The notes under the pieces: model-generated
Databases searched by the model: none
Told to the model about the DNA's origin: nothing
The model's input: the letters and a program-made list of their open reading frames with translations, nothing else
Sequence record: PZ296772.1
Strand: one strand, 5' to 3'
Length of the DNA: 64,000 bases
Source: a phage
Program-made: the position numbers and the translations under genes
Shown here: in pieces, positions 1,917-62,558 of the stretch
Numbering within the stretch: position 1 is the stretch's first letter
How the letters are laid out: the number at the start of each line of letters is the position of its first letter

Positions 1917-2867
1917 ATGACACGTTCACATTACATTGAATACTTTGCCGGGCTTATCGCTAACGTTCATGCCCAGCGCGCTTCTGGTGCACTAGGATTT
2001 GATGTTCCACACCGAGATGTAGTAAGTGGTATTCTTCGTGATTTTGGTACATACACAGGTCAAGAAAATCATATCTGTAAAGATACTCAAAATGCATATT
2101 CTCATTCATTAGGGACACTGCTTCAATGGTTCAAACGTTCTCGTTTATTATCTTCTACTGTAGCTCGTGATAACATCAAAAACTTTATGAAGCCGAGCTT
2201 TATTAAATCTGTGACATCTAAAACCGATTTGGTTGAATTCACTATTGTTAATGATGTTAAAAAGACTCATTTGGCTGATTGGTTATCTACCATTCCTGAA
2301 ACTAAATTTGCTGATAAATTTGCTTGTGAATTCAATAACCAAGTGAATATGCTTTTTAAACATTCTCGTAAATTATTCACGGGCGGTGATGGTCGTACAA
2401 ATAAAGTTCATGTTAAAGATTGGGTTACTGCAGTATTCAAACCAACCGGTAATGGTAACGCATCATTATCAATTGATATCCAGGTTCCTTATTACTACTC
2501 ACGTAATCTCGGTACCATGAAAGCTGAAGAAATTAATAAGCATAACAAAACCGTTCGTTCGTTGTCTTATAAACTTATTACATTGTTAGAGACTATGGAT
2601 GTTGTTGAAACGTTCGACGAGTCCGAAGATAACGGTTCAATGTTATACAGTTCTCGCACCCGAATTAAGCTGAGGAACCCTAACGAGTATAAACTTAAGA
2701 CTATTAAAGAACCTAAAGTAGAAAAAGTTGACAACTTGAGCGAAGAACGTGAGTACCTCAAATCTCGTCTGAAAGAAGTCGAAGCCCAGATTAAAGAACA
2801 GACTAAATCGTTAAAAGCTCTGAATGCGAAAGCGGATGGTTTACGAAATGCCATTGAGGTGTTATAA
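1917..2867 (+). CDS. hypothetical early protein with C-terminal coiled-coil
   Basis: 316-aa ORF, RBS gagagg upstream, coiled-coil C-terminus. Confidence 0.55.
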   Translation: MTRSHYIEYFAGLIANVHAQRASGALGFDVPHRDVVSGILRDFGTYTGQENHICKDTQNAYSHSLGTLLQWFKRSRLLSSTVARDNIKNFMKPSFIKSVTSKTDLVEFTIVNDVKKTHLADWLSTIPETKFADKFACEFNNQVNMLFKHSRKLFTGGDGRTNKVHVKDWVTAVFKPTGNGNASLSIDIQVPYYYSRNLGTMKAEEINKHNKTVRSLSYKLITLLETMDVVETFDESEDNGSMLYSSRTRIKLRNPNEYKLKTIKEPKVEKVDNLSEEREYLKSRLKEVEAQIKEQTKSLKALNAKADGLRNAIEVL

Positions 2868-4809: not shown

Positions 4810-5223
4810 ATGAATATTTCTGAAACTCGCGGTAAATGGTTCAAGATTGTTAAAGAAGACGAAGAACTACAAGACAAGTTTCCTGAATTAAAGAAAGGAA
4901 CAATCCTCAAGGTAATTGGTACTACTACCGAAGATGGTTATGGCGACCATGGCATTATCGAAGTGATGTTGAACACAGGTGAGAAACTTTGCATCTATGA
5001 CCGTGATACTTCTCTTTGGTGCTTCTGGGAATCCCATTCAATAGATGAACTCGAAGAAATTGACCAAGTAGTTTGTGATGGTGGACTTGGCGAATTCGAA
5101 GGTGAACGTATTTCTTATGCTTTAGCTAAATTAGCTGGTCAAGAAAATAATGACGGTTATGAAGGTAATCTGATGCAAGCCGCAGCGGAATACATTGAAT
5201 ATTTAGAAAGACGTTTAAGTTAA
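4810..5223 (+). CDS. hypothetical acidic protein
   Basis: 137 aa from ATG 4810 overlapping upstream stop. Confidence 0.5.
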   Translation: MNISETRGKWFKIVKEDEELQDKFPELKKGTILKVIGTTTEDGYGDHGIIEVMLNTGEKLCIYDRDTSLWCFWESHSIDELEEIDQVVCDGGLGEFEGERISYALAKLAGQENNDGYEGNLMQAAAEYIEYLERRLS

Positions 5224-5228
5224 TAAAT

Positions 5229-5253
5229 ACCCTTATCTATTTAAGGTAAGGGT
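5229..5253 (+). promoter_or_regulatory. stem-loop sequestering the gene 49 ribosome-binding site
   Basis: accctta / taagggt 7-bp inverted repeat ending 6 nt before ATG 5259; second arm contains the aaggg SD. Confidence 0.5.
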
Positions 5254-6477: not shown

Positions 6478-6485
6478 TATAAATA
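6478..6485 (+). promoter_or_regulatory. T4-type late promoter TATAAATA inside intron
   Basis: exact tataaata 30 bp upstream of endonuclease ORF, preceded by ctgcat/atgcag hairpin. Confidence 0.55.
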
Positions 6486-17481: not shown

Positions 17482-17898
17482 ATGTTTACTACTGCTAAAG
17501 GTTTCACTGCTGCTGATCTGAAAGTTACTTCTATCCGTACTGACGTTAACCCACATAACCATAATCGTGTTCGTAAAGCATGGGTCCTGCATTGTGATGA
17601 CGCAAGTGCTAAAAAACTTCAATCTTTGCCACAAGAAACTCGTTTTATGATTTATGGTTTTATTGATAACGATGTATCTGATATGTGGATTCATCTGATG
17701 CGTAAGCACTATAAAGATTCTATTGAAGCTGGCGGAAAAATCGTTCTTGATAAAGACGGTTCTGAGCGTCTGGAAGATTTATATTGTGTTGATGCAGACG
17801 AACAACTAATTGCAGCTGGCGAAATTGTTGCTTCTAAAATTCCAGAATATATTGAATCATTGCCTGAAGCTATTAAAAAGCAGATGGTTGCTGCATAA
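17482..17898 (+). CDS. rpbA: RNA polymerase-binding protein RpbA (positional assignment)
   Basis: 138-aa ORF in the conserved slot between 46 and 45. Confidence 0.6.
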   Translation: MFTTAKGFTAADLKVTSIRTDVNPHNHNRVRKAWVLHCDDASAKKLQSLPQETRFMIYGFIDNDVSDMWIHLMRKHYKDSIEAGGKIVLDKDGSERLEDLYCVDADEQLIAAGEIVASKIPEYIESLPEAIKKQMVAA

Positions 17899-17940
17899 TA
17901 AATTTGTTATAAACTTTGAATTGTCTTGAAAGGAAATAAA

Positions 17941-30029: not shown

Positions 30030-30083
30030 TCATCTTATCTTTTAAACATGAGTAAAATATAATGATGCCTATGGAAAAATACA

Positions 30084-31256
30084 ATGTCTGATTTAAAATC
30101 TCGTCTGATTAAAGCTTCTACTTCTAAAATGACTGCAGACTTGACTAAGTCTAAGCTGTTTAATAATCGTGATGAAGTCCCTACTCGTATTCCGATGTTG
30201 AATATTGCACTAGGTGGTGCTCTGAATGCAGGATTGCAATCAGGCTTGACTATTTTTGCTGCTCCTTCTAAACACTTTAAAACGTTGTTTGGGCTGACTA
30301 TGGTTGCAGCGTATATGAAGAAATATAAAGATGCAATCTGTTTGTTTTATGACTCGGAATTCGGTGCTTCAGAATCTTATTTTCGTTCAATGGGTGTCGA
30401 TTTAGACCGTGTAGTTCATACACCAATTCAGTCTGTCGAACAACTTAAAGTCGATATGACTAATCAGCTTGACGCTATTGAACGCGGTGATAAAGTTATT
30501 ATCTTTATCGATTCAATCGGTAATACTGCATCTAAGAAAGAAACCGAAGATGCGTTGAACGAGAAAGTTGTAGGTGATATGTCTCGTGCTAAGGCACTTA
30601 AATCTCTTTTCCGTATTGTGACCCCGTATCTGACTATTAAAGATATTCCGTGTGTTGCAATTAACCATACCGCAATGGAAATTGGCGGATTGTATCCTAA
30701 AGAGATTATGGGCGGTGGTACAGGTATTCTTTATTCTGCCAACACAGTATTTTTTATCTCTAAACGTCAGGTTAAAGAAGGTACAGAATTGACCGGTTAT
30801 GACTTCACGTTGAAAGCAGAAAAATCTCGCACCGTTAAAGAAAAATCTACTTTCCCAATCACGGTTAATTTTGATGGTGGTATCGACCCATTCAGTGGCT
30901 TGCTAGAAATGGCAACTGAAATCGGTTTTGTGGTTAAGCCTAAAGCCGGGTGGTATGCTCGTGAATTCCTTGACGAAGAAACAGGTGAAATGATTCGTGA
31001 AGAAAAATCATGGCGTGCTAAAGCTACTGATTGTGTAGAATTCTGGGGACCTTTGTTTAAACACAAACCTTTCCGAGATGCAATTGAAACCAAATATAAA
31101 CTAGGTGCTATCTCTTCTATTAAAGAAGTTGATGACGCTGTTAACGACCTTATTAATTGCAAAGCAACAACTAAGGTTCCAGTTAAAACTTCTGATGCTC
31201 CATCTGCAGCAGATATAGAAAACGACCTTGACGAAATGGAAGATTTCGATGAATAA
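30084..31256 (+). CDS. uvsX: RecA-like recombinase UvsX
   Basis: MSDLKSRLIKASTSK...GWYAREFLDEETGEMIREEKSWRAK matches T4 UvsX from memory. Confidence 0.93.
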   Translation: MSDLKSRLIKASTSKMTADLTKSKLFNNRDEVPTRIPMLNIALGGALNAGLQSGLTIFAAPSKHFKTLFGLTMVAAYMKKYKDAICLFYDSEFGASESYFRSMGVDLDRVVHTPIQSVEQLKVDMTNQLDAIERGDKVIIFIDSIGNTASKKETEDALNEKVVGDMSRAKALKSLFRIVTPYLTIKDIPCVAINHTAMEIGGLYPKEIMGGGTGILYSANTVFFISKRQVKEGTELTGYDFTLKAEKSRTVKEKSTFPITVNFDGGIDPFSGLLEMATEIGFVVKPKAGWYAREFLDEETGEMIREEKSWRAKATDCVEFWGPLFKHKPFRDAIETKYKLGAISSIKEVDDAVNDLINCKATTKVPVKTSDAPSAADIENDLDEMEDFDE

Positions 31257-36248: not shown

Positions 36249-36716
36249 ATGGGTATTATTAACACTGCAATAGATTCTGTTTACGCATATAAGTTTATTC
36301 GACTAATGCAAAAACCTTTTACCGAATGGAAAGCATACGAAGCCAAAATCATCGATGAACGTGGAAGTGTTCTTAAACGTCCTTCTACTCCCGAAGAGAA
36401 AGCAGCGTATACACCTTTTCATGCTTCAGTTCGTTCAATGAAGCGAATGATGAGCACTGTTCCGGGTCTTAATGGAATGGCCTCAATGATGTCTGCCTGG
36501 AGTGCTGTAGCTTCACGCTATAACATTACGGAAGAACAACAGAAAGAAATATTTAAAGAACTCCCTTTATTTGAGGATATGGTTGCTGGTGATTCAGGTG
36601 GCAGCCCTCAAGCTATTGCATCAGGAACAACTACAGGTGCAGTCGTAAATAAAGGTCCAGAACAAATTCCTTCCAAGAAAAGAAAGCGAATTAAAGTAAA
36701 TATTAATAAGTTGTGA
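36249..36716 (+). CDS. hypothetical protein
   Basis: 155 aa; aggagg RBS. Confidence 0.5.
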   Translation: MGIINTAIDSVYAYKFIRLMQKPFTEWKAYEAKIIDERGSVLKRPSTPEEKAAYTPFHASVRSMKRMMSTVPGLNGMASMMSAWSAVASRYNITEEQQKEIFKELPLFEDMVAGDSGGSPQAIASGTTTGAVVNKGPEQIPSKKRKRIKVNINKL

Positions 36717-36755
36717 TATGATGGCCTTATTAATTTAAGGCCTCTGGAGAATACT

Positions 36756-37778
36756 ATGGCTGAATGGATAGATAATGAATTTGCGTATCGTGCGTTTTCT
36801 CACCTACCTCGTTTTAGACAAATCAATAATTCAAGCACATTTAAATTAACATTTCGTTGTCCAGTTTGTGGCGACTCCCAGACAGATGCAATGAAAGCTC
36901 GTGGATGGTATTATGGCGGTACTCCTGGTAATGTACATTGCTATAATTGTCAATACCACAATACAATTTCCGGATACTTAAAAGAATATGACGAAGAGCT
37001 TTATCGCGAATATCTAATGGAAGTTCGTAAAGAAAAAGCTAGAATGGAACCAAAGATTGAAAAGGTTCCTGAAGCTAAGCCGGAGCCAGAGAAAAAGACT
37101 ATAAATTCTTTGCCGTCTTGTTCTCGTCTGGACAAGCTGCCTGAAGAGCATCCTATTGTGAAATATGTTAAGTCTCGATGCATTCCTAAAGAATCATGGA
37201 ACAGATTATGGTTCACATTAGAATGGCCTAAATTGGTCAACAAGATTCAACCTGGTACGTATAAGAAAGAGATTCCCGAACCACGTTTAGTGATTCCTAT
37301 TTTTAATAAAGACGGGAAGGCTGAGTCATTCCAAGGACGTGCACTTCGTAAAGATGCTCCTCAGAAATATATCACTATTAAAGCGTTTGAGTCTGCAACA
37401 AAAATTTATGGTGTTGAACGTGTTAAGGAAGGGGACGTCTGGGTAATGGAAGGCCCTATTGATAGTTTATTCATACCCAATGCAATCGCTATTACAGGCG
37501 GCTCAATAGATTTAGATGTGGTACCATTTAAAGAACGTCGGGTATGGGTAATGGATAATGAACCTAGGCATCCGGATACTATAGCTCGCATGAAGCGATT
37601 AGTTGATGCAGGCGAACGTGTCATGTTCTGGGACCGAGCTCCATGGAGATCAAAGGATGTGAATGATATGGTAATGAAAGAAAATGCAACACCACAAGAA
37701 ATTTTAGAATATATGAAACAGAATATTTCAAGTGGGTTGCATGCTAAAATGAGATTATCTCGTTATTCGAAGATTTAA
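36756..37778 (+). CDS. 61: DNA primase gp61
   Basis: zinc ribbon CPVCGDS...CYNC; Toprim region; matches T4 gp61 from memory. Confidence 0.92.
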   Translation: MAEWIDNEFAYRAFSHLPRFRQINNSSTFKLTFRCPVCGDSQTDAMKARGWYYGGTPGNVHCYNCQYHNTISGYLKEYDEELYREYLMEVRKEKARMEPKIEKVPEAKPEPEKKTINSLPSCSRLDKLPEEHPIVKYVKSRCIPKESWNRLWFTLEWPKLVNKIQPGTYKKEIPEPRLVIPIFNKDGKAESFQGRALRKDAPQKYITIKAFESATKIYGVERVKEGDVWVMEGPIDSLFIPNAIAITGGSIDLDVVPFKERRVWVMDNEPRHPDTIARMKRLVDAGERVMFWDRAPWRSKDVNDMVMKENATPQEILEYMKQNISSGLHAKMRLSRYSKI

Positions 37779-37972
37779 ACAAGCCCTATAATAGCAAAGG
37801 CCAAATCAACTACAGTATCCAATGGAACAGAAGGAACTATAATACCATGGGCAACTAACAATGGCGCAATCCCGAAGTTCCATGAAATAATGCCACCTAC
37901 AACTATTGCAGCGATAGCAGTTTTCTTTTTATTGCCTTTAATAGCGTTGATTAACGATGGAAGTTTAAACAT
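37775..37972 (-). CDS. small membrane protein encoded antisense to the early gene array
   Basis: 65 aa, two hydrophobic helices; perfect RBS aaggag 7 nt upstream on - strand; sits in the 61-56 gap. Confidence 0.5.
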   Translation of the reverse strand: MFKLPSLINAIKGNKKKTAIAAIVVGGIISWNFGIAPLLVAHGIIVPSVPLDTVVDLAFAIIGLV

Positions 37973-38060
37973 AATATCTCCTTAGTTACCTATTATTTAT
38001 TACGCTTTATAAAATTAATGTTAGAATTAACTCTCTTATACTGAATTGAAAGGAAAAATT

Positions 38061-38582
38061 ATGGCACACTTTAACGAATGTTCACAACTTATTTCTGGTG
38101 TTGATAAAGCAGAAGAAGCTTATTTTAATGCTCTGATTCACGAAGATAAAGACCCACTGCAGGTAATGCTTGATATGCAGAAATCTTTACAGGTTCGTTT
38201 GGCAAATGATAAGCCTGAACATAACAAACATCCTGATGAATTGGCTACTGCCGGTGATGTTGTTGATTGGCTGCGTAATCAGAAAGATTATATTGATGAT
38301 GAATTCCGTGAACTGCTGACTTCACTTGGCGGTATGAGCAATGGTGAAAAAGCCGCTAGCTCTGTATGGAAGCCGTGGAAAGCACAACATGCTGAATATC
38401 GTAATCGTCGTATCGATGAACTGTCTCCTGAAGACCAGCTTGAAATTAAATTCGAGATGATTGACATCCTCCACTTTGTTCTGAATATGTTCCAAGGTCT
38501 GGGTCTTTCTGCTGAAGAAATCTTTAAACTTTACTACTTGAAAAACCAACACAACTTTGAACGCCAGGATAACGGTTACTAA
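38061..38582 (+). CDS. 56: dCTPase-dUTPase gp56
   Basis: MAHFNEC...DPLQVMLDMQ...LTSLGGMSNGEKA matches T4 gp56 from memory. Confidence 0.9.
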   Translation: MAHFNECSQLISGVDKAEEAYFNALIHEDKDPLQVMLDMQKSLQVRLANDKPEHNKHPDELATAGDVVDWLRNQKDYIDDEFRELLTSLGGMSNGEKAASSVWKPWKAQHAEYRNRRIDELSPEDQLEIKFEMIDILHFVLNMFQGLGLSAEEIFKLYYLKNQHNFERQDNGY

Positions 38583-38588
38583 TTAAGT

Positions 38589-38596
38589 TATAAATA
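38589..38596 (+). promoter_or_regulatory. T4-type late promoter TATAAATA for soc
   Basis: exact tataaata about 32 bp upstream of soc ATG. Confidence 0.65.
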
Positions 38597-38627: not shown

Positions 38628-38864
38628 ATGGGTGGTTACGTTAATATCAAAACCTTTACGCATCCTGCCGGTGAAGGCAAAGAAGTTAAAGGTATGGAAG
38701 TTTCTGTACCGTTTGAGATTTATTCAAACGAACATCGGATTGCAGATTCTCATTACCAAATCTTTCCATCAGAAAAGGCAGCATATTCTACTGTAGTTTC
38801 TGATGCGGCTGATTGGAAAACTAAGAATGCCGCAATGTTTACCCCTACACCAGTAAGTGGTTAA
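38628..38864 (+). CDS. soc: small outer capsid protein Soc
   Basis: GYVNIKTF...HYQIFPSEKAAYSTV matches T4 Soc from memory. Confidence 0.88.
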   Translation: MGGYVNIKTFTHPAGEGKEVKGMEVSVPFEIYSNEHRIADSHYQIFPSEKAAYSTVVSDAADWKTKNAAMFTPTPVSG

Positions 38865-39205: not shown

Positions 39206-39406
39206 ATGATGCCGATTCCTGATACACACGAAAAAAGTTGGGAATACATTGGTGATGGAATGATGGAAGAAGTTGTTCGTCCAAAAACAAAACAGGTTAA
39301 TGCTTCAAGCTCTTCCGATTATAATCATTCATACGTATCGTCTTGGCCTGGTGATTCTGGGTCAAGTTATTCTGATTGTGGTTCAAGCTCAGGGAGCTGC
39401 GAATGA
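39206..39406 (+). CDS. hypothetical Ser-rich protein
   Basis: 66 aa; gaagg RBS. Confidence 0.4.
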   Translation: MMPIPDTHEKSWEYIGDGMMEEVVRPKTKQVNASSSSDYNHSYVSSWPGDSGSSYSDCGSSSGSCE

Positions 39407-39582
39407 ACAGAATAGTAAAATGGTTTAAAAGCTTGAATGATGGTGTCGGTCCGGAAGATTGGCTGGATGTTCTTGAAGAGAATATGGCTAAAGAATTCCA
39501 GAAACACGAAGAGAAGCTCGTCGAAGATGAAGGCGAACGTATTGTAAAACTTTATATGGGTGAACCATCGAGGAAATTATAA
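39402..39582 (+). CDS. hypothetical protein
   Basis: 59 aa; ATGA overlap. Confidence 0.4.
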
Positions 39583-48359: not shown

Positions 48360-50177
48360 ATGATTAAAAATGAAATTAAGGTATTGTCAGATGTAGAACA
48401 TATTAAGAAACGTAGTGGTATGTATATTGGTTCTTCGGCCAAAGAAGCACATGAGCGTTTTTTGTTTGGTAAATATCAACAAGTTGAATATGTTCCTGGT
48501 CTGGTTAAATTAATCGATGAGATTATTGACAACTCGGTCGATGAAGCTATTCGTACATCATTTAAGTTTGCAAATAAAATTGATGTGCAAATTAAAAATA
48601 ATCAAGTTTCGGTGGAAGATAACGGACGTGGTATTCCTCAAGGTTTAGTTACAGACCAAACAGGTGAACAAATTCCTGGGCCTGTAGCAGCCTGGACTAT
48701 TCCAAAGGCCGGTGGTAACTTTGGTGATGACTCTGAACGCAAGACTGGTGGTATGAACGGTGTCGGGAGTAGTTTAACTAATATCTTCTCTACGTTGTTT
48801 ACAGGCATTACGTCAGATGGCGAAAATGAAATCACTGTTAACTGTTCAAACGGAATGGAAAACAAATCATGGTCTTCTAAGAAATCTAAAGGTAAAGGCA
48901 CTAAAGTAATCTTCACTCCTGATTTCTCTTCATTTGAAGAGCATAATTTATCTCAAATTTATTTAGATATTACTTTAGACCGACTTCAAACATTAGCAGT
49001 CGTTTATCCTGATATCAAGTTCACATTTAATGGTAAAAAGGTTGATGGTAATTTTAAACGATTTGCTAAACAATTTGGTGAAGATAACATCATTCAAGAA
49101 AATGATAAAGTCTCTATAGCATTCACAACATCACCAGATGGCTTCCGTCATTTAACTTATGTGAATAACATCCATACTAAAAATGGCGGACATCATGTTG
49201 AATGTGTAATGGATGATATCTGCGAACATCTTTTGCCGGGTATTAAAAAGAAATATAAAGGTATTGAAGTCACTAAAGCTCGTGTTAAAGAATGCCTCAC
49301 AATGTTGATGTTTATTAGAGACATGAGCAACGTGCGTTTTGATTCTCAGACTAAAGAACGTTTAACGTCGACGTATGGTGATATTCGTAATCATATCCAA
49401 TTAGATGCTAAGAAAATTGCTCAGGCACTTCTTAAAAACGAAGCCTTGATTATGCCTATTGTTGAAGCAGCATTAGCTCGTAAATTGGCGGCAGAAAAGG
49501 CTGCAGAAACTAAAGCAGCTAAAAAGGCAACTAAAGCTAAAGTTCATAAGCATATTAAAGCTAACCAATGTGGTAAAGATGCAGATACGACATTGTTCTT
49601 AACAGAAGGTGATTCGGCAATTGGTTATCTCATTGATGTTCGTGACCGTGAACTACACGGTGGATTCCCATTACGTGGTAAGGTGATGAATAGCTGGGGT
49701 ATGTCATATGCTGATATGATGAAGAACAAAGAGCTCTTTGATATCTGTGCTATCACAGGTCTTATTCTTGGTGAAAAGGCAGAGAATACGAACTATCGTA
49801 ATATTGCAATTATGACTGATGCCGATCATGACGGTCTTGGAAGTATTTATCCGGCTTTGCTTGCTTTCTTTAGTAATTGGCCTGAATTGTTTGAACAAGG
49901 ACGTATTCGCTTTGTTAAAACGCCTGTAATTATTGCACAAATTGGCAAAACTCAAAAATGGTTTTATACTGTAGCTGAGTATGAAGAAGTTAAAGATACA
50001 CTGCCTAAGCATAGTATTCGATACATCAAGGGATTAGGCTCCCTTGAAAAGTCAGAATATCGTGAAATGATTCAGAACCCAGTGTACGACGTAGTTAAAC
50101 TTCCTGAAAATTGGAAAGAACTATTTGAAATGCTCATGGGTGATGATTCAGAACTTCGTAAAGAATGGATGTCCTAA
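48360..50177 (+). CDS. 39: DNA topoisomerase II large subunit (gp39 fused with gp60-equivalent region)
   Basis: 605 aa continuous; GHKL ATPase motif EDNGRGIP and Toprim LTEGDSA. Confidence 0.9.
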   Translation: MIKNEIKVLSDVEHIKKRSGMYIGSSAKEAHERFLFGKYQQVEYVPGLVKLIDEIIDNSVDEAIRTSFKFANKIDVQIKNNQVSVEDNGRGIPQGLVTDQTGEQIPGPVAAWTIPKAGGNFGDDSERKTGGMNGVGSSLTNIFSTLFTGITSDGENEITVNCSNGMENKSWSSKKSKGKGTKVIFTPDFSSFEEHNLSQIYLDITLDRLQTLAVVYPDIKFTFNGKKVDGNFKRFAKQFGEDNIIQENDKVSIAFTTSPDGFRHLTYVNNIHTKNGGHHVECVMDDICEHLLPGIKKKYKGIEVTKARVKECLTMLMFIRDMSNVRFDSQTKERLTSTYGDIRNHIQLDAKKIAQALLKNEALIMPIVEAALARKLAAEKAAETKAAKKATKAKVHKHIKANQCGKDADTTLFLTEGDSAIGYLIDVRDRELHGGFPLRGKVMNSWGMSYADMMKNKELFDICAITGLILGEKAENTNYRNIAIMTDADHDGLGSIYPALLAFFSNWPELFEQGRIRFVKTPVIIAQIGKTQKWFYTVAEYEEVKDTLPKHSIRYIKGLGSLEKSEYREMIQNPVYDVVKLPENWKELFEMLMGDDSELRKEWMS

Positions 50178-61580: not shown

Positions 61581-61853
61581 ATGAATAAAGACATTGAAAT
61601 CGTACGTGAAATTATTACTATTGCTTCTATTTTGATTAAATTCTCTAGGGAAGATATTGTTGAAGACCGAGCAAATTTCATCGGATTCTTGAATGAGATT
61701 GGAATTAAAAAAGATGGTCGGCAGCTAAATCAGAATTCGTTCAGAAAACTAATTACAAATTTAACTGCCGAAGAAAAGAAAACACTGATTAGTGAATTCA
61801 ATGAAGGTTTTGAAAATATTTATCGCCATTTGACGATGTATTCTAACAACTAA
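61581..61853 (+). CDS. asiA: anti-sigma70 factor AsiA
   Basis: VREIITIASILIKFSREDIVEDRANFIGFLNEIG...NQNSFRKL matches T4 AsiA from memory; 90 aa. Confidence 0.92.
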   Translation: MNKDIEIVREIITIASILIKFSREDIVEDRANFIGFLNEIGIKKDGRQLNQNSFRKLITNLTAEEKKTLISEFNEGFENIYRHLTMYSNN

Positions 61854-62513
61854 TTATTTAGCCCGCCCTAATATCCTTGCTGCTTGGTTGCATATTGCAG
61901 CCAAGCGTTCTTCATTTAACACATCCGACCCCTTATACCAATACATAGAAACAGTTCCCGCATATATGTTATCCAAATTGAAGTAAGGACAACTATACAT
62001 ATACGCCAGTTCCGGAGTTTTTGATTTGGTAGGTAAGAAAGCAAAATCTGTTTTAGAAGTAAAGTGAAGTCCACTTAAATGGACCGAATATTCTGCTGTC
62101 GTTTTATCAACAGGAAATCCTCCCATAGATTTTTCAGTTACTGTGCTAGGTAACTTACCTTCATACGCAATAAGGTCGACGAAATAATTTAGATTTTTAG
62201 GTCTGAAAGAATACACCGAACTAAAATCCGCCCTTGATGTGACGTGGACTATTTGTAGTTGTTCTAAAGCCGCAGATTCAAATCGTGTATTTCTTTCTTT
62301 TTGAATTACTTCTGTGTAAGTATCATATTTCGACCTCACGTAATAATCCATAAAAATATTCCCTTTGTACCATATTAGTGCCATTAGGAACAAAAGAACT
62401 ACAACAGCAACTCTTGAAATAAGAATATTTCCAGAGGCGTTATCTTTGAAAATGCGGTCTAGCAACCCAAATAAAATATCACTAGGCGAAAATGATACTT
62501 TTGGTGCTGCCAT
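61854..62513 (-). CDS. t: holin T
   Basis: MAAPKVSFSPSDILFGLLDRIFKDNA...SCPYFNLDNIYAGT matches T4 holin from memory; SD ggaggt before ATG 62513. Confidence 0.9.
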   Translation of the reverse strand: MAAPKVSFSPSDILFGLLDRIFKDNASGNILISRVAVVVLLFLMALIWYKGNIFMDYYVRSKYDTYTEVIQKERNTRFESAALEQLQIVHVTSRADFSSVYSFRPKNLNYFVDLIAYEGKLPSTVTEKSMGGFPVDKTTAEYSVHLSGLHFTSKTDFAFLPTKSKTPELAYMYSCPYFNLDNIYAGTVSMYWYKGSDVLNEERLAAICNQAARILGRAK

Positions 62514-62531
62514 ATTACCTCCCATTTATCA

Positions 62532-62539
62532 ATATTTAT
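62532..62539 (-). promoter_or_regulatory. T4-type late promoter TATAAATA for t
   Basis: tataaata on - strand about 20 bp upstream of t start. Confidence 0.6.
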
Positions 62540-62558
62540 AATTGAGAGGTATTATCGT

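Follow-up and report, generated by a model that had tools for sequence, protein, structure and literature searches.

A conserved antisense gene between genes 61 and 56 of an RB69-like T-even phage probably encodes a late, one-helix inner-membrane micro-protein

An open reading frame (ORF) of 65 codons is located on the minus strand between the genes for primase (gene 61) and dCTPase (gene 56) in a 64,000-nucleotide (nt) stretch of phage DNA from sequence record PZ296772.1, referred to here as the window. The comparative evidence that this antisense ORF is a genuine, conserved gene is strong, and it probably encodes a bitopic inner-membrane micro-protein from a monocistronic, strictly late transcript; an accessory role of the product at the envelope during the lysis or lysis-inhibition phase is put forward tentatively. 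Over the 2 kb around the ORF, many RB69-like T-even phages of the genus Mosigvirus, among them PTK, HX01 and ST0, share 97.5–98.2% identity with the window, which by this similarity is the DNA of an RB69-like T-even phage of that genus. Its early and middle genes run along the plus strand. The locus contains the following elements, taken from the ORF list, the sequence and a motif search.

37775..37972, minus strand: coding sequence (CDS) of the antisense ORF, 65 residues, stop codon included, ATG at 37970–37972 (ORF list; match to PHROG 2024)
37978–37983, minus strand: Shine-Dalgarno sequence AAGGAG, 5 nt before the ATG of the antisense ORF (sequence)
37994..38001, minus strand: late-promoter-like octamer AATAAATA, 7/8 of TATAAATA, 21 nt before the ATG (motif search)
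37775..37778, across both strands: the two TAA stops, of the antisense ORF (37775–37777) and of primase (37776–37778), in a convergent 4-nt overlap (sequence)
36756..37778, plus strand: ORF of primase gp61 (ORF list)
from 38061, plus strand: start of the ORF of dCTPase gp56 (ORF list)

The protein encoded by the antisense ORF has the sequence MFKLPSLINAIKGNKKKTAIAAIVVGGIISWNFGIAPLLVAHGIIVPSVPLDTVVDLAFAIIGLV. The first-pass annotation of this DNA had described the ORF, a perfect Shine-Dalgarno sequence in front of it, and its position in the 61–56 gap with an overlap at the end of the primase gene. All three are borne out: the ORF is present in the ORF list with an ATG start, the AAGGAG lies at a spacing of 5 nt, and the stop codons of the two converging genes interlock, leaving no space for an intervening terminator.

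The length of the ORF alone is not significant, since many spurious ORFs of similar length (60–80 codons) are found in the AT-rich window; their frequency, together with the curated T4 reference, in which the gene is not annotated, would fit a chance ORF without expression. The reality of the gene is indicated by the comparative data and not by its length. A search with tblastn returned 693 phage records with the antisense gene, T4 included at ~54% identity; in 686 of these the frame is intact and the match extends over 80% or more of the query. The length is kept at 60–69 residues across sequences that are only 22–34% identical, dN/dS (the ratio of nonsynonymous to synonymous substitution rates) is far under 1, and both the Shine-Dalgarno sequence and the promoter motif are conserved. 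On these comparative data the chance-ORF explanation is effectively refuted, and the probability that we leave to it is negligible.

Selection on the gene was estimated by pairwise Nei-Gojobori dN/dS for the family members from Mosigvirus, Tequatrovirus and Gaprivervirus. The values are 0.04–0.13 in Mosigvirus, with one pair of two substitutions at 0.33, and ~0.25–0.47 in Gaprivervirus; in Tequatrovirus, pairs with more than three substitutions mostly lie at 0.12–0.22, and near-identical pairs scatter up to 0.6. Substitutions cluster at the third codon position, and second-position changes number zero in Mosigvirus and few elsewhere. At the protein level, W31, P37 and G43 never vary across members of 22–34% identity and N32 and P47 hardly ever do, while an acidic residue stands at position 52 in 18 of 18 aligned members. 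Within the close group, K3, L4, L7, K12, G13 and K16 do not vary either. From this conservation we derived the motif W-[ND]-[FYL]-x3-P-x5-G-x3-[PS]-x4-[DE], which follows a basic N-terminus and all residues of which are present in the window protein (W31, N32, F33, P37, G43, P47 and D52). In a narrower form, W-N-[FY]-x3-P-x5-G-x3-P-x4-[DE], the motif is likewise conserved.

The genomic context was inspected in 25 loci that cover Mosig-, Tequatro-, Gapriver-, Dhaka-, Gelderland-, Jiaoda-, Kanagawa- and Karamvirus together with two metagenomic contigs. In each of the 25 the gene codes for 60–69 residues and is the only one that is reversed, with primase at one flank and the gene 56 side at the other; GGAG or GGAGG is found at the same spacing from the ATG throughout. 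Conservation of the ORF in relatives, named by the first-pass annotation as a check, is thus found across at least eight genera, with the frame kept under purifying selection. An identical 4-nt stop overlap with gene 61 is annotated in RB69, RB32, S16, KLB31, Entb_45 and CkP1. Variable inserts are found on the gene 56 side of the antisense gene, namely dam in T4 and a mazG-like gene elsewhere. On the gene 61 side, Gaprivervirus genomes have a gap of 119 nt between the ORF and gene 61, which holds a 9-bp hairpin followed by a T-run, and a 124-residue gene is situated between the antisense ORF and primase in the metagenomic locus L029. The Krischvirus RB49 has no antisense gene; its gene 56 starts 14 nt after gene 61, and gene 40 is retained.

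Some members of the family show traces of rearrangement or interruption. The Gaprivervirus CJ20 carries, at ~2700–2795 (+) of locus L006 and directly after the full-length ORF, a frame IFYQIWKLTSKKDKKHHGLKSP* that is followed by the 9-bp hairpin and the T-run, and that resembles an N-terminal remnant of the Dhakavirus JS10-type version (MGSIFYQIWKLAEKKDKKMM...) of the same protein. By its sequence, this remnant with its hairpin suggests past tandem copies or gene replacement at the site. Frameshifted copies of the gene are found in T4_ev240 (locus L027, ~1440–1460) and ERS-1 (locus L008, ~2640). An A-run is the site of one of the two frameshifts, and the record with the other is flagged 'UNVERIFIED'; they are poor evidence of dispensability because sequencing errors may account for them.

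The product matches PHROG 2024 over its full length (residues 1–65 against profile positions 1–65 of 65, E 1.9e-27). This is the sole PHROGs family returned for it, and is labelled 'unknown function'. The window gene is the same gene as RB69ORF029w, RB32ORF030w, HX01 gp163 and S16 gp16.1, another member of their family that differs from them in nothing of substance: its protein is identical to HX01 gp163 and one residue off RB69ORF029w, and 217 public contigs carry exactly this sequence, every time under the name 'hypothetical protein'. A profile search of 1.84 billion representative proteins retrieved only eight representatives of the family. Its distant members were traced to T4-type phages of Salmonella, Klebsiella, Citrobacter and Enterobacter, among others; no bacterial homologue was seen in this search, and the distant members that could be placed on contigs lie in a T4-type phage context. 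By these searches the family is narrow. No significant match was obtained in scans of Pfam, NCBIfam and PADLOC, Foldseek returned 0 hits against the PDB, a sequence-profile search of the PDB gave only transmembrane-helix noise (E at least 0.15), and a structure search of BFVD found family members only, one of them labelled 'Holin'. In the literature, the name RB69ORF029w was found in no main text, and broader searches gave no paper on the gene. As a hypothetical ORF, the gene had been annotated before; what is modestly new here is the conserved late-promoter footprint, the breadth of the conserved synteny and the omission of the gene from the reference T4 annotation.

The T4 homologue has 66 residues, MVQKLMALVNAIKGNKKRIAFTISTMVGILLWNFILSPVAIAHGVNIPVVTLDTFVDLAFALVGLI, and is encoded at 17738–17938 (+) of NC_000866.4, within the 309-nt gap between dam and gene 61. 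Neither NC_000866.4 nor AF158101.6 has a feature in this gap. The homologue has been called in RB32 and RB69, and by the automated annotation of a T4 mutant record. Its late transcript is predicted to start at ~17722–17725 (+) of NC_000866.4, and the T4 protein would yield a single large tryptic peptide, of ~48 hydrophobic residues. Differential RNA sequencing of T4 is reported to show 22 antisense start sites (bioRxiv 10.1101/2024.04.04.588121).

The timing of expression was approached through the sequence upstream of the gene. The consensus of T4 late promoters is TATAAATA at positions -13 to -6, and in RB69-type phages the T at -13 is reported to be poorly conserved, with A or T common (PMC1524935). 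The octamer AATAAATA upstream of the antisense ORF predicts a transcription start at ~37986–37988 (minus strand) and a leader of ~15 nt. The core ATAAATA is found 12–33 nt upstream of the ATG in 23 of the 25 loci, though the upstream flanks are unalignable between genera, and Entb_45 has a perfect TATAAATA upstream of the gene. In the 64-kb window, TATAAATA occurs in 3 copies against 7.3 expected, and VATAAATA in 4 copies against 21 ± 4.4 expected; ATAAATA occurs 7 times on both strands (128 kb), which corresponds to a chance of ~0.14% per given 25-nt span on one strand. Two of the three perfect TATAAATA copies directly precede the late genes soc and t. The copies and the genes concerned, together with asiA, after which the next minus-strand gene is found, are located as follows.

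38589–38596, plus strand: perfect TATAAATA before soc (motif search)
38628–38864, plus strand: soc (ORF list)
62533–62540, minus strand: perfect TATAAATA before holin t, 19 nt from the T4-homologous ATG at ~62513 (motif search)
61854–62525, minus strand: holin t ORF as listed; the late genes 38 and 37 follow, also on the minus strand
61581–61853, plus strand: asiA; the next minus-strand gene after the antisense ORF follows it
6478–6485, plus strand: perfect TATAAATA inside gene 49, for endonuclease VII (motif search)

The listed holin t ORF begins four codons upstream (MGGN-MAAPKVSF...) of the start homologous to that of T4 T at ~62513. The third perfect copy is consistent with a nested late product of gene 49, which is known in T4. 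A conserved ATAAATA upstream of the gene, in a sequence that is otherwise depleted of this motif, indicates strictly late expression, and we infer from this pattern that the antisense gene is strictly late.

The late genes t and soc offer two points of comparison within the window. Holin t in the window has its late octamer 19 nt before the T4-homologous ATG, and the corresponding distance is 21 nt for the antisense gene; each of the two genes is on the strand opposite to the adjacent early genes. The octamer of t is perfect, whereas that of the antisense gene lacks the first T. The gene soc is driven by a late promoter within the same early block, 650 nt from the antisense gene, but it is co-oriented with the early genes and codes for a soluble capsid decoration protein, whereas the antisense gene is reversed and codes for a predicted membrane protein.

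The first-pass annotation had taken the antisense ORF for the only minus-strand coding feature between the window start and asiA, and this holds in substance. In the matching 50 kb of the near-identical phage HX01, ~100 annotated CDSs are co-oriented, except for the antisense gene and four calls of 21–37 residues; these four reversed RefSeq CDSs, gp148, gp164, gp168 and gp169 (30063–30128, 38036–38113, 39258–39335 and 39342–39455, all on the minus strand), are probably over-calls. Separate and possibly late expression, as the same annotation had anticipated, agrees with the conserved ATAAATA just upstream of the Shine-Dalgarno sequence and with the lack of a conserved sigma-70 promoter. Its suggestion of transcription by the host polymerase stands for the core enzyme, which is that of the host; the predicted late promoter would in addition need the phage late factors gp55, gp33 and gp45.

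An early or middle expression from a sigma-70-type promoter, with a product that acts in superinfection exclusion in the manner of Imm or Sp and with the ATAAATA as an incidental sequence, was also considered. The envelope genes imm and sp are among the neighbours on the opposite strand, and a weak sigma-70-like element, TTGTGA-18-CATAAT, is found at 38087–38058 (minus strand). This element, the sole candidate, was rejected as a chance-level match: it agrees with the consensus at 9 of 12 positions, such matches are at least as dense in shuffled sequence (8.4 expected against 7 found), and it lies inside the gene 56 CDS, which is replaced by dam at that position in T4. Neither a conserved nor an above-chance sigma-70-type promoter was found for the antisense ORF. 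The ATAAATA, in contrast, keeps its position in 23 of 25 loci and is rare elsewhere, and the protein has no sequence similarity to Imm or Sp. There is, in our judgement, only a very small chance that this explanation holds.

The late-promoter-like octamer adjoins the middle promoter of gene 56, which is not part of the antisense gene.

38000..38027, plus strand: gene 56 middle promoter, with the MotA box ttaCGCTTTA at 38000–38009 and the -10 element TAGAAT at 38022–38027 (sequence)

This promoter is listed for RB69 as 'Pm:16038' with a score of 21.6 (Nolan 2006 supplement S4). The late motif on the minus strand and the MotA box on the plus strand are arranged back-to-back with an overlap of 2 nt, forming a compact control region at 37994–38027 in which interference between the middle and the late transcription complexes is a possibility.

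The convergent arrangement with gene 61 has a consequence for the late transcript. As the stops overlap and no terminator-like site was found on the minus strand in 36500–37775, the late RNA should run antisense into gene 61. This raises the question of whether an antisense RNA is the main function of the locus, with late read-through into gene 61 silencing or destabilising the primase mRNA. The 4-nt overlap and the missing terminator-like site are compatible with such a function, the convergence with gene 61 is kept in all genera examined, and late antisense transcription of the T4 early gene 32 provides a precedent (Belin et al. 1987, as cited in PMC3014915). Purifying selection and invariant residues, however, would be needless for a role restricted to antisense RNA, read-through into gene 61 is probably blocked in Gaprivervirus by the 9-bp hairpin and T-run in the 119-nt gap, and in L029 the 124-residue gene intervenes between ORF and primase. 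An RNA role and a protein role are, moreover, not mutually exclusive. As a main function, antisense RNA is considered unlikely; as a by-product of the late gene, an RNA antisense to the 3' end of the primase mRNA would be expected, though not universally, given the Gaprivervirus hairpin and T-run and the intervening gene of L029.

The other VATAAATA copies in the 64 kb are only three, at 5222–5229 (plus strand), 49844–49851 (minus strand) and 61817–61824 (minus strand). One of them lies antisense within the topoisomerase gene 39, and another is found just beyond the stop of holin t, aimed antisense into asiA. No convincing ORF follows any of the three, and they may be orphan late starts making antisense RNA.

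The protein was modelled with AlphaFold2 (AF2) from a 31-sequence alignment, which gave a mean predicted local distance difference test score (pLDDT) of 88 and helices at residues 3–11, 15–41 (pLDDT ~90) and 51–64. Together with a scan on the Hessa scale and the conservation, the model divides the protein into three parts.

37922..37972, minus strand: residues 1–17, predicted cytoplasmic amphipathic helix followed by the basic cluster KGNKKK (AF2 helix 3–11, charge bias)
37850..37921, minus strand: residues 18–41, single Gly/Ala-rich, marginally hydrophobic transmembrane (TM) helix with W31-N32-F33 and P37 (AF2, Hessa scan, conservation)
37778..37849, minus strand: residues 42–65, predicted periplasmic tail with an H-G-x3-P-x4-D motif and a C-terminal hydrophobic/amphipathic helix 51–64 (AF2, conservation)

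The simple Hessa-scale scan finds one membrane-spanning candidate at ~18–41, with sums of -2.4 to +3.6 kcal/mol across members, and C-terminal segments at +4 to +15 kcal/mol, which are not membrane-spanning. Five Lys/Arg residues precede the TM helix and none follows it, from which an N-in/C-out topology is deduced by the positive-inside rule. TMHMM likewise predicts a single TM helix, at 21–41, for RB69ORF029w (Nolan 2006 supplement S2). The protein is thus modelled as a one-helix inner-membrane protein of N-in/C-out topology. The small membrane protein seen by the first-pass annotation is retained in this model, with its basic N-terminus preceding a TM helix, but its second membrane helix is not: the C-terminal helix 51–64 has only 14 residues, too short to span, and is in distant members also too polar. 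Conservation is strongest in the outer half of the TM helix and in the periplasmic juxtamembrane stretch, which suggests a specific contact with a conserved partner in the envelope, of phage or host origin. A dual start at M1/M6, as in lambda S, was rejected as a family feature; it is present in T4-type proteins and absent from Mosigvirus and Gaprivervirus.

A small protein with a TM helix and predicted late expression might be a holin, a pinholin or a membrane-damaging peptide of the type I-toxin kind; a T4-type member bears the label 'Holin' in one UniRef entry, and one of 31 members gives a weak match to Ldr_toxin (E = 0.1). The label, however, is not supported by any other annotation, the Ldr_toxin match is not significant, and scans of Pfam, NCBIfam, PADLOC and PHROGs give no significant holin or toxin family. 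On neither strand of 37400–38400 does Rfam find a known RNA element, such as the cis-antisense RNA antitoxin of a type I system would be. The protein has one TM helix, and its hydrophobic C-terminus (AFAIIGLV) is placed in the periplasm by the prediction, with no charged cytoplasmic tail. The adjoining genes are those of primase and dCTPase rather than of an endolysin or spanin, and a T-type holin is already present at 61854–62525 of the window. The holin features checked here in the sequence, namely a family match, a charged C-terminal tail and linkage to endolysin or spanin genes, are therefore not seen, and a function of this kind is highly improbable. Holin T and the antisense-gene protein are both predicted to be bitopic N-in/C-out inner-membrane proteins, but T has 218–223 residues with a large periplasmic domain, whereas the antisense-gene protein has 65 with a 24-residue tail, and there is no sequence similarity between them.

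A predicted late and membrane-inserted product would also suit a head-assembly factor that anchors or organises the initiation complex of portal gp20 and gp40 on the cytoplasmic membrane. Prohead initiation in T4 is membrane-bound, and gene 40 is ~6 kb off in the same early block. No link of sequence, operon or co-variation connects the antisense gene with gene 40, however, and RB49 keeps gene 40 without it. In addition, the conserved residues are in the outer half of the TM helix and the periplasmic part, whereas proheads assemble on the cytoplasmic side. We regard this role as very unlikely.

Returning to the late, monocistronic gene for a bitopic micro-protein, the following course of events is proposed. 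Late in infection, host RNA polymerase carrying the late sigma factor gp55, with the help of gp33 and the gp45 clamp, would start at AATAAATA and produce an mRNA with a short leader and a strong Shine-Dalgarno sequence that encodes the 65-residue protein. Its basic N-terminus would stay in the cytoplasm, the TM helix (~18–41) would cross the inner membrane, and the tail of ~24 residues would be exposed to the periplasm. Because the gene is on the strand opposite to the early and middle genes, its expression by early read-through is plausibly prevented, and the reversed placement would thus confine the product to the late phase, as for holin t further along the window. The protein may then serve as an accessory factor of the envelope during lysis or lysis inhibition, which is a possibility that we hold only tentatively; it could act through in-membrane or juxtamembrane contacts, involving the Trp-Asn and the Pro-rich motif, with, for example, holin T, the antiholin RI or the i-spanin. 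A resemblance to RI and other proteins of the signal-anchor-release (SAR) type is noted. They share a small size, a weakly hydrophobic N-terminal TM segment rich in Gly, Ala, Ser and Thr, and a periplasmic C-terminus (predicted here), and RI and other SAR proteins act late at the envelope, as the antisense-gene protein would. The periplasmic part of RI has ~70 residues, compared to ~24 in the antisense-gene protein, and no homology was detected in the family scans, so the likeness is one of resemblance only.

Several points weigh against this reading at different levels. With regard to the promoter, most genera have A, G or C at -13 instead of the first T of the octamer, the corresponding sequence in S16 and CkP1 is ATTAAATA, and no late promoter was predicted at this RB69 site by Nolan et al. 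2006; the strength of the candidate late promoter could be low. With regard to the membrane, the TM helix is only marginally hydrophobic by the simple Hessa sum, and it might insert stably only with the help of a partner, or act as a releasable SAR domain. With regard to the lysis phase, the proposed role is drawn only from the combination of late and membrane, and the antisense gene is not adjacent to any lysis gene. The lysis set of T4 (t, e, rI, rIII and the spanins) is already genetically complete, and we know of no r mutant from the classical hunts that maps to this site.

T4 is the reference system for this group of phages, yet its curated annotation leaves the 309-nt gap between dam and gene 61 empty. 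If the gene is a dispensable accessory, the gain from its recognition would be a tidier annotation only. There is, on the other hand, an outside chance that it provides a missing membrane component of the T-even circuit for lysis timing and lysis inhibition, or of another late envelope process such as the sensing of, or resistance to, superinfection. If so, its absence from the T4 reference annotation would explain why it has escaped notice, and the strictly late antisense placement, combined with an imperfect promoter, would serve the dosing of a potentially toxic membrane protein. Adding the gene to the T4 annotation would allow existing transcriptomics, proteomics and CRISPR interference (CRISPRi) data to be re-read for it, and the gene offers a cheap knockout target for late envelope events that are poorly understood, including lysis-inhibition signalling and the integrity of the membrane before lysis.

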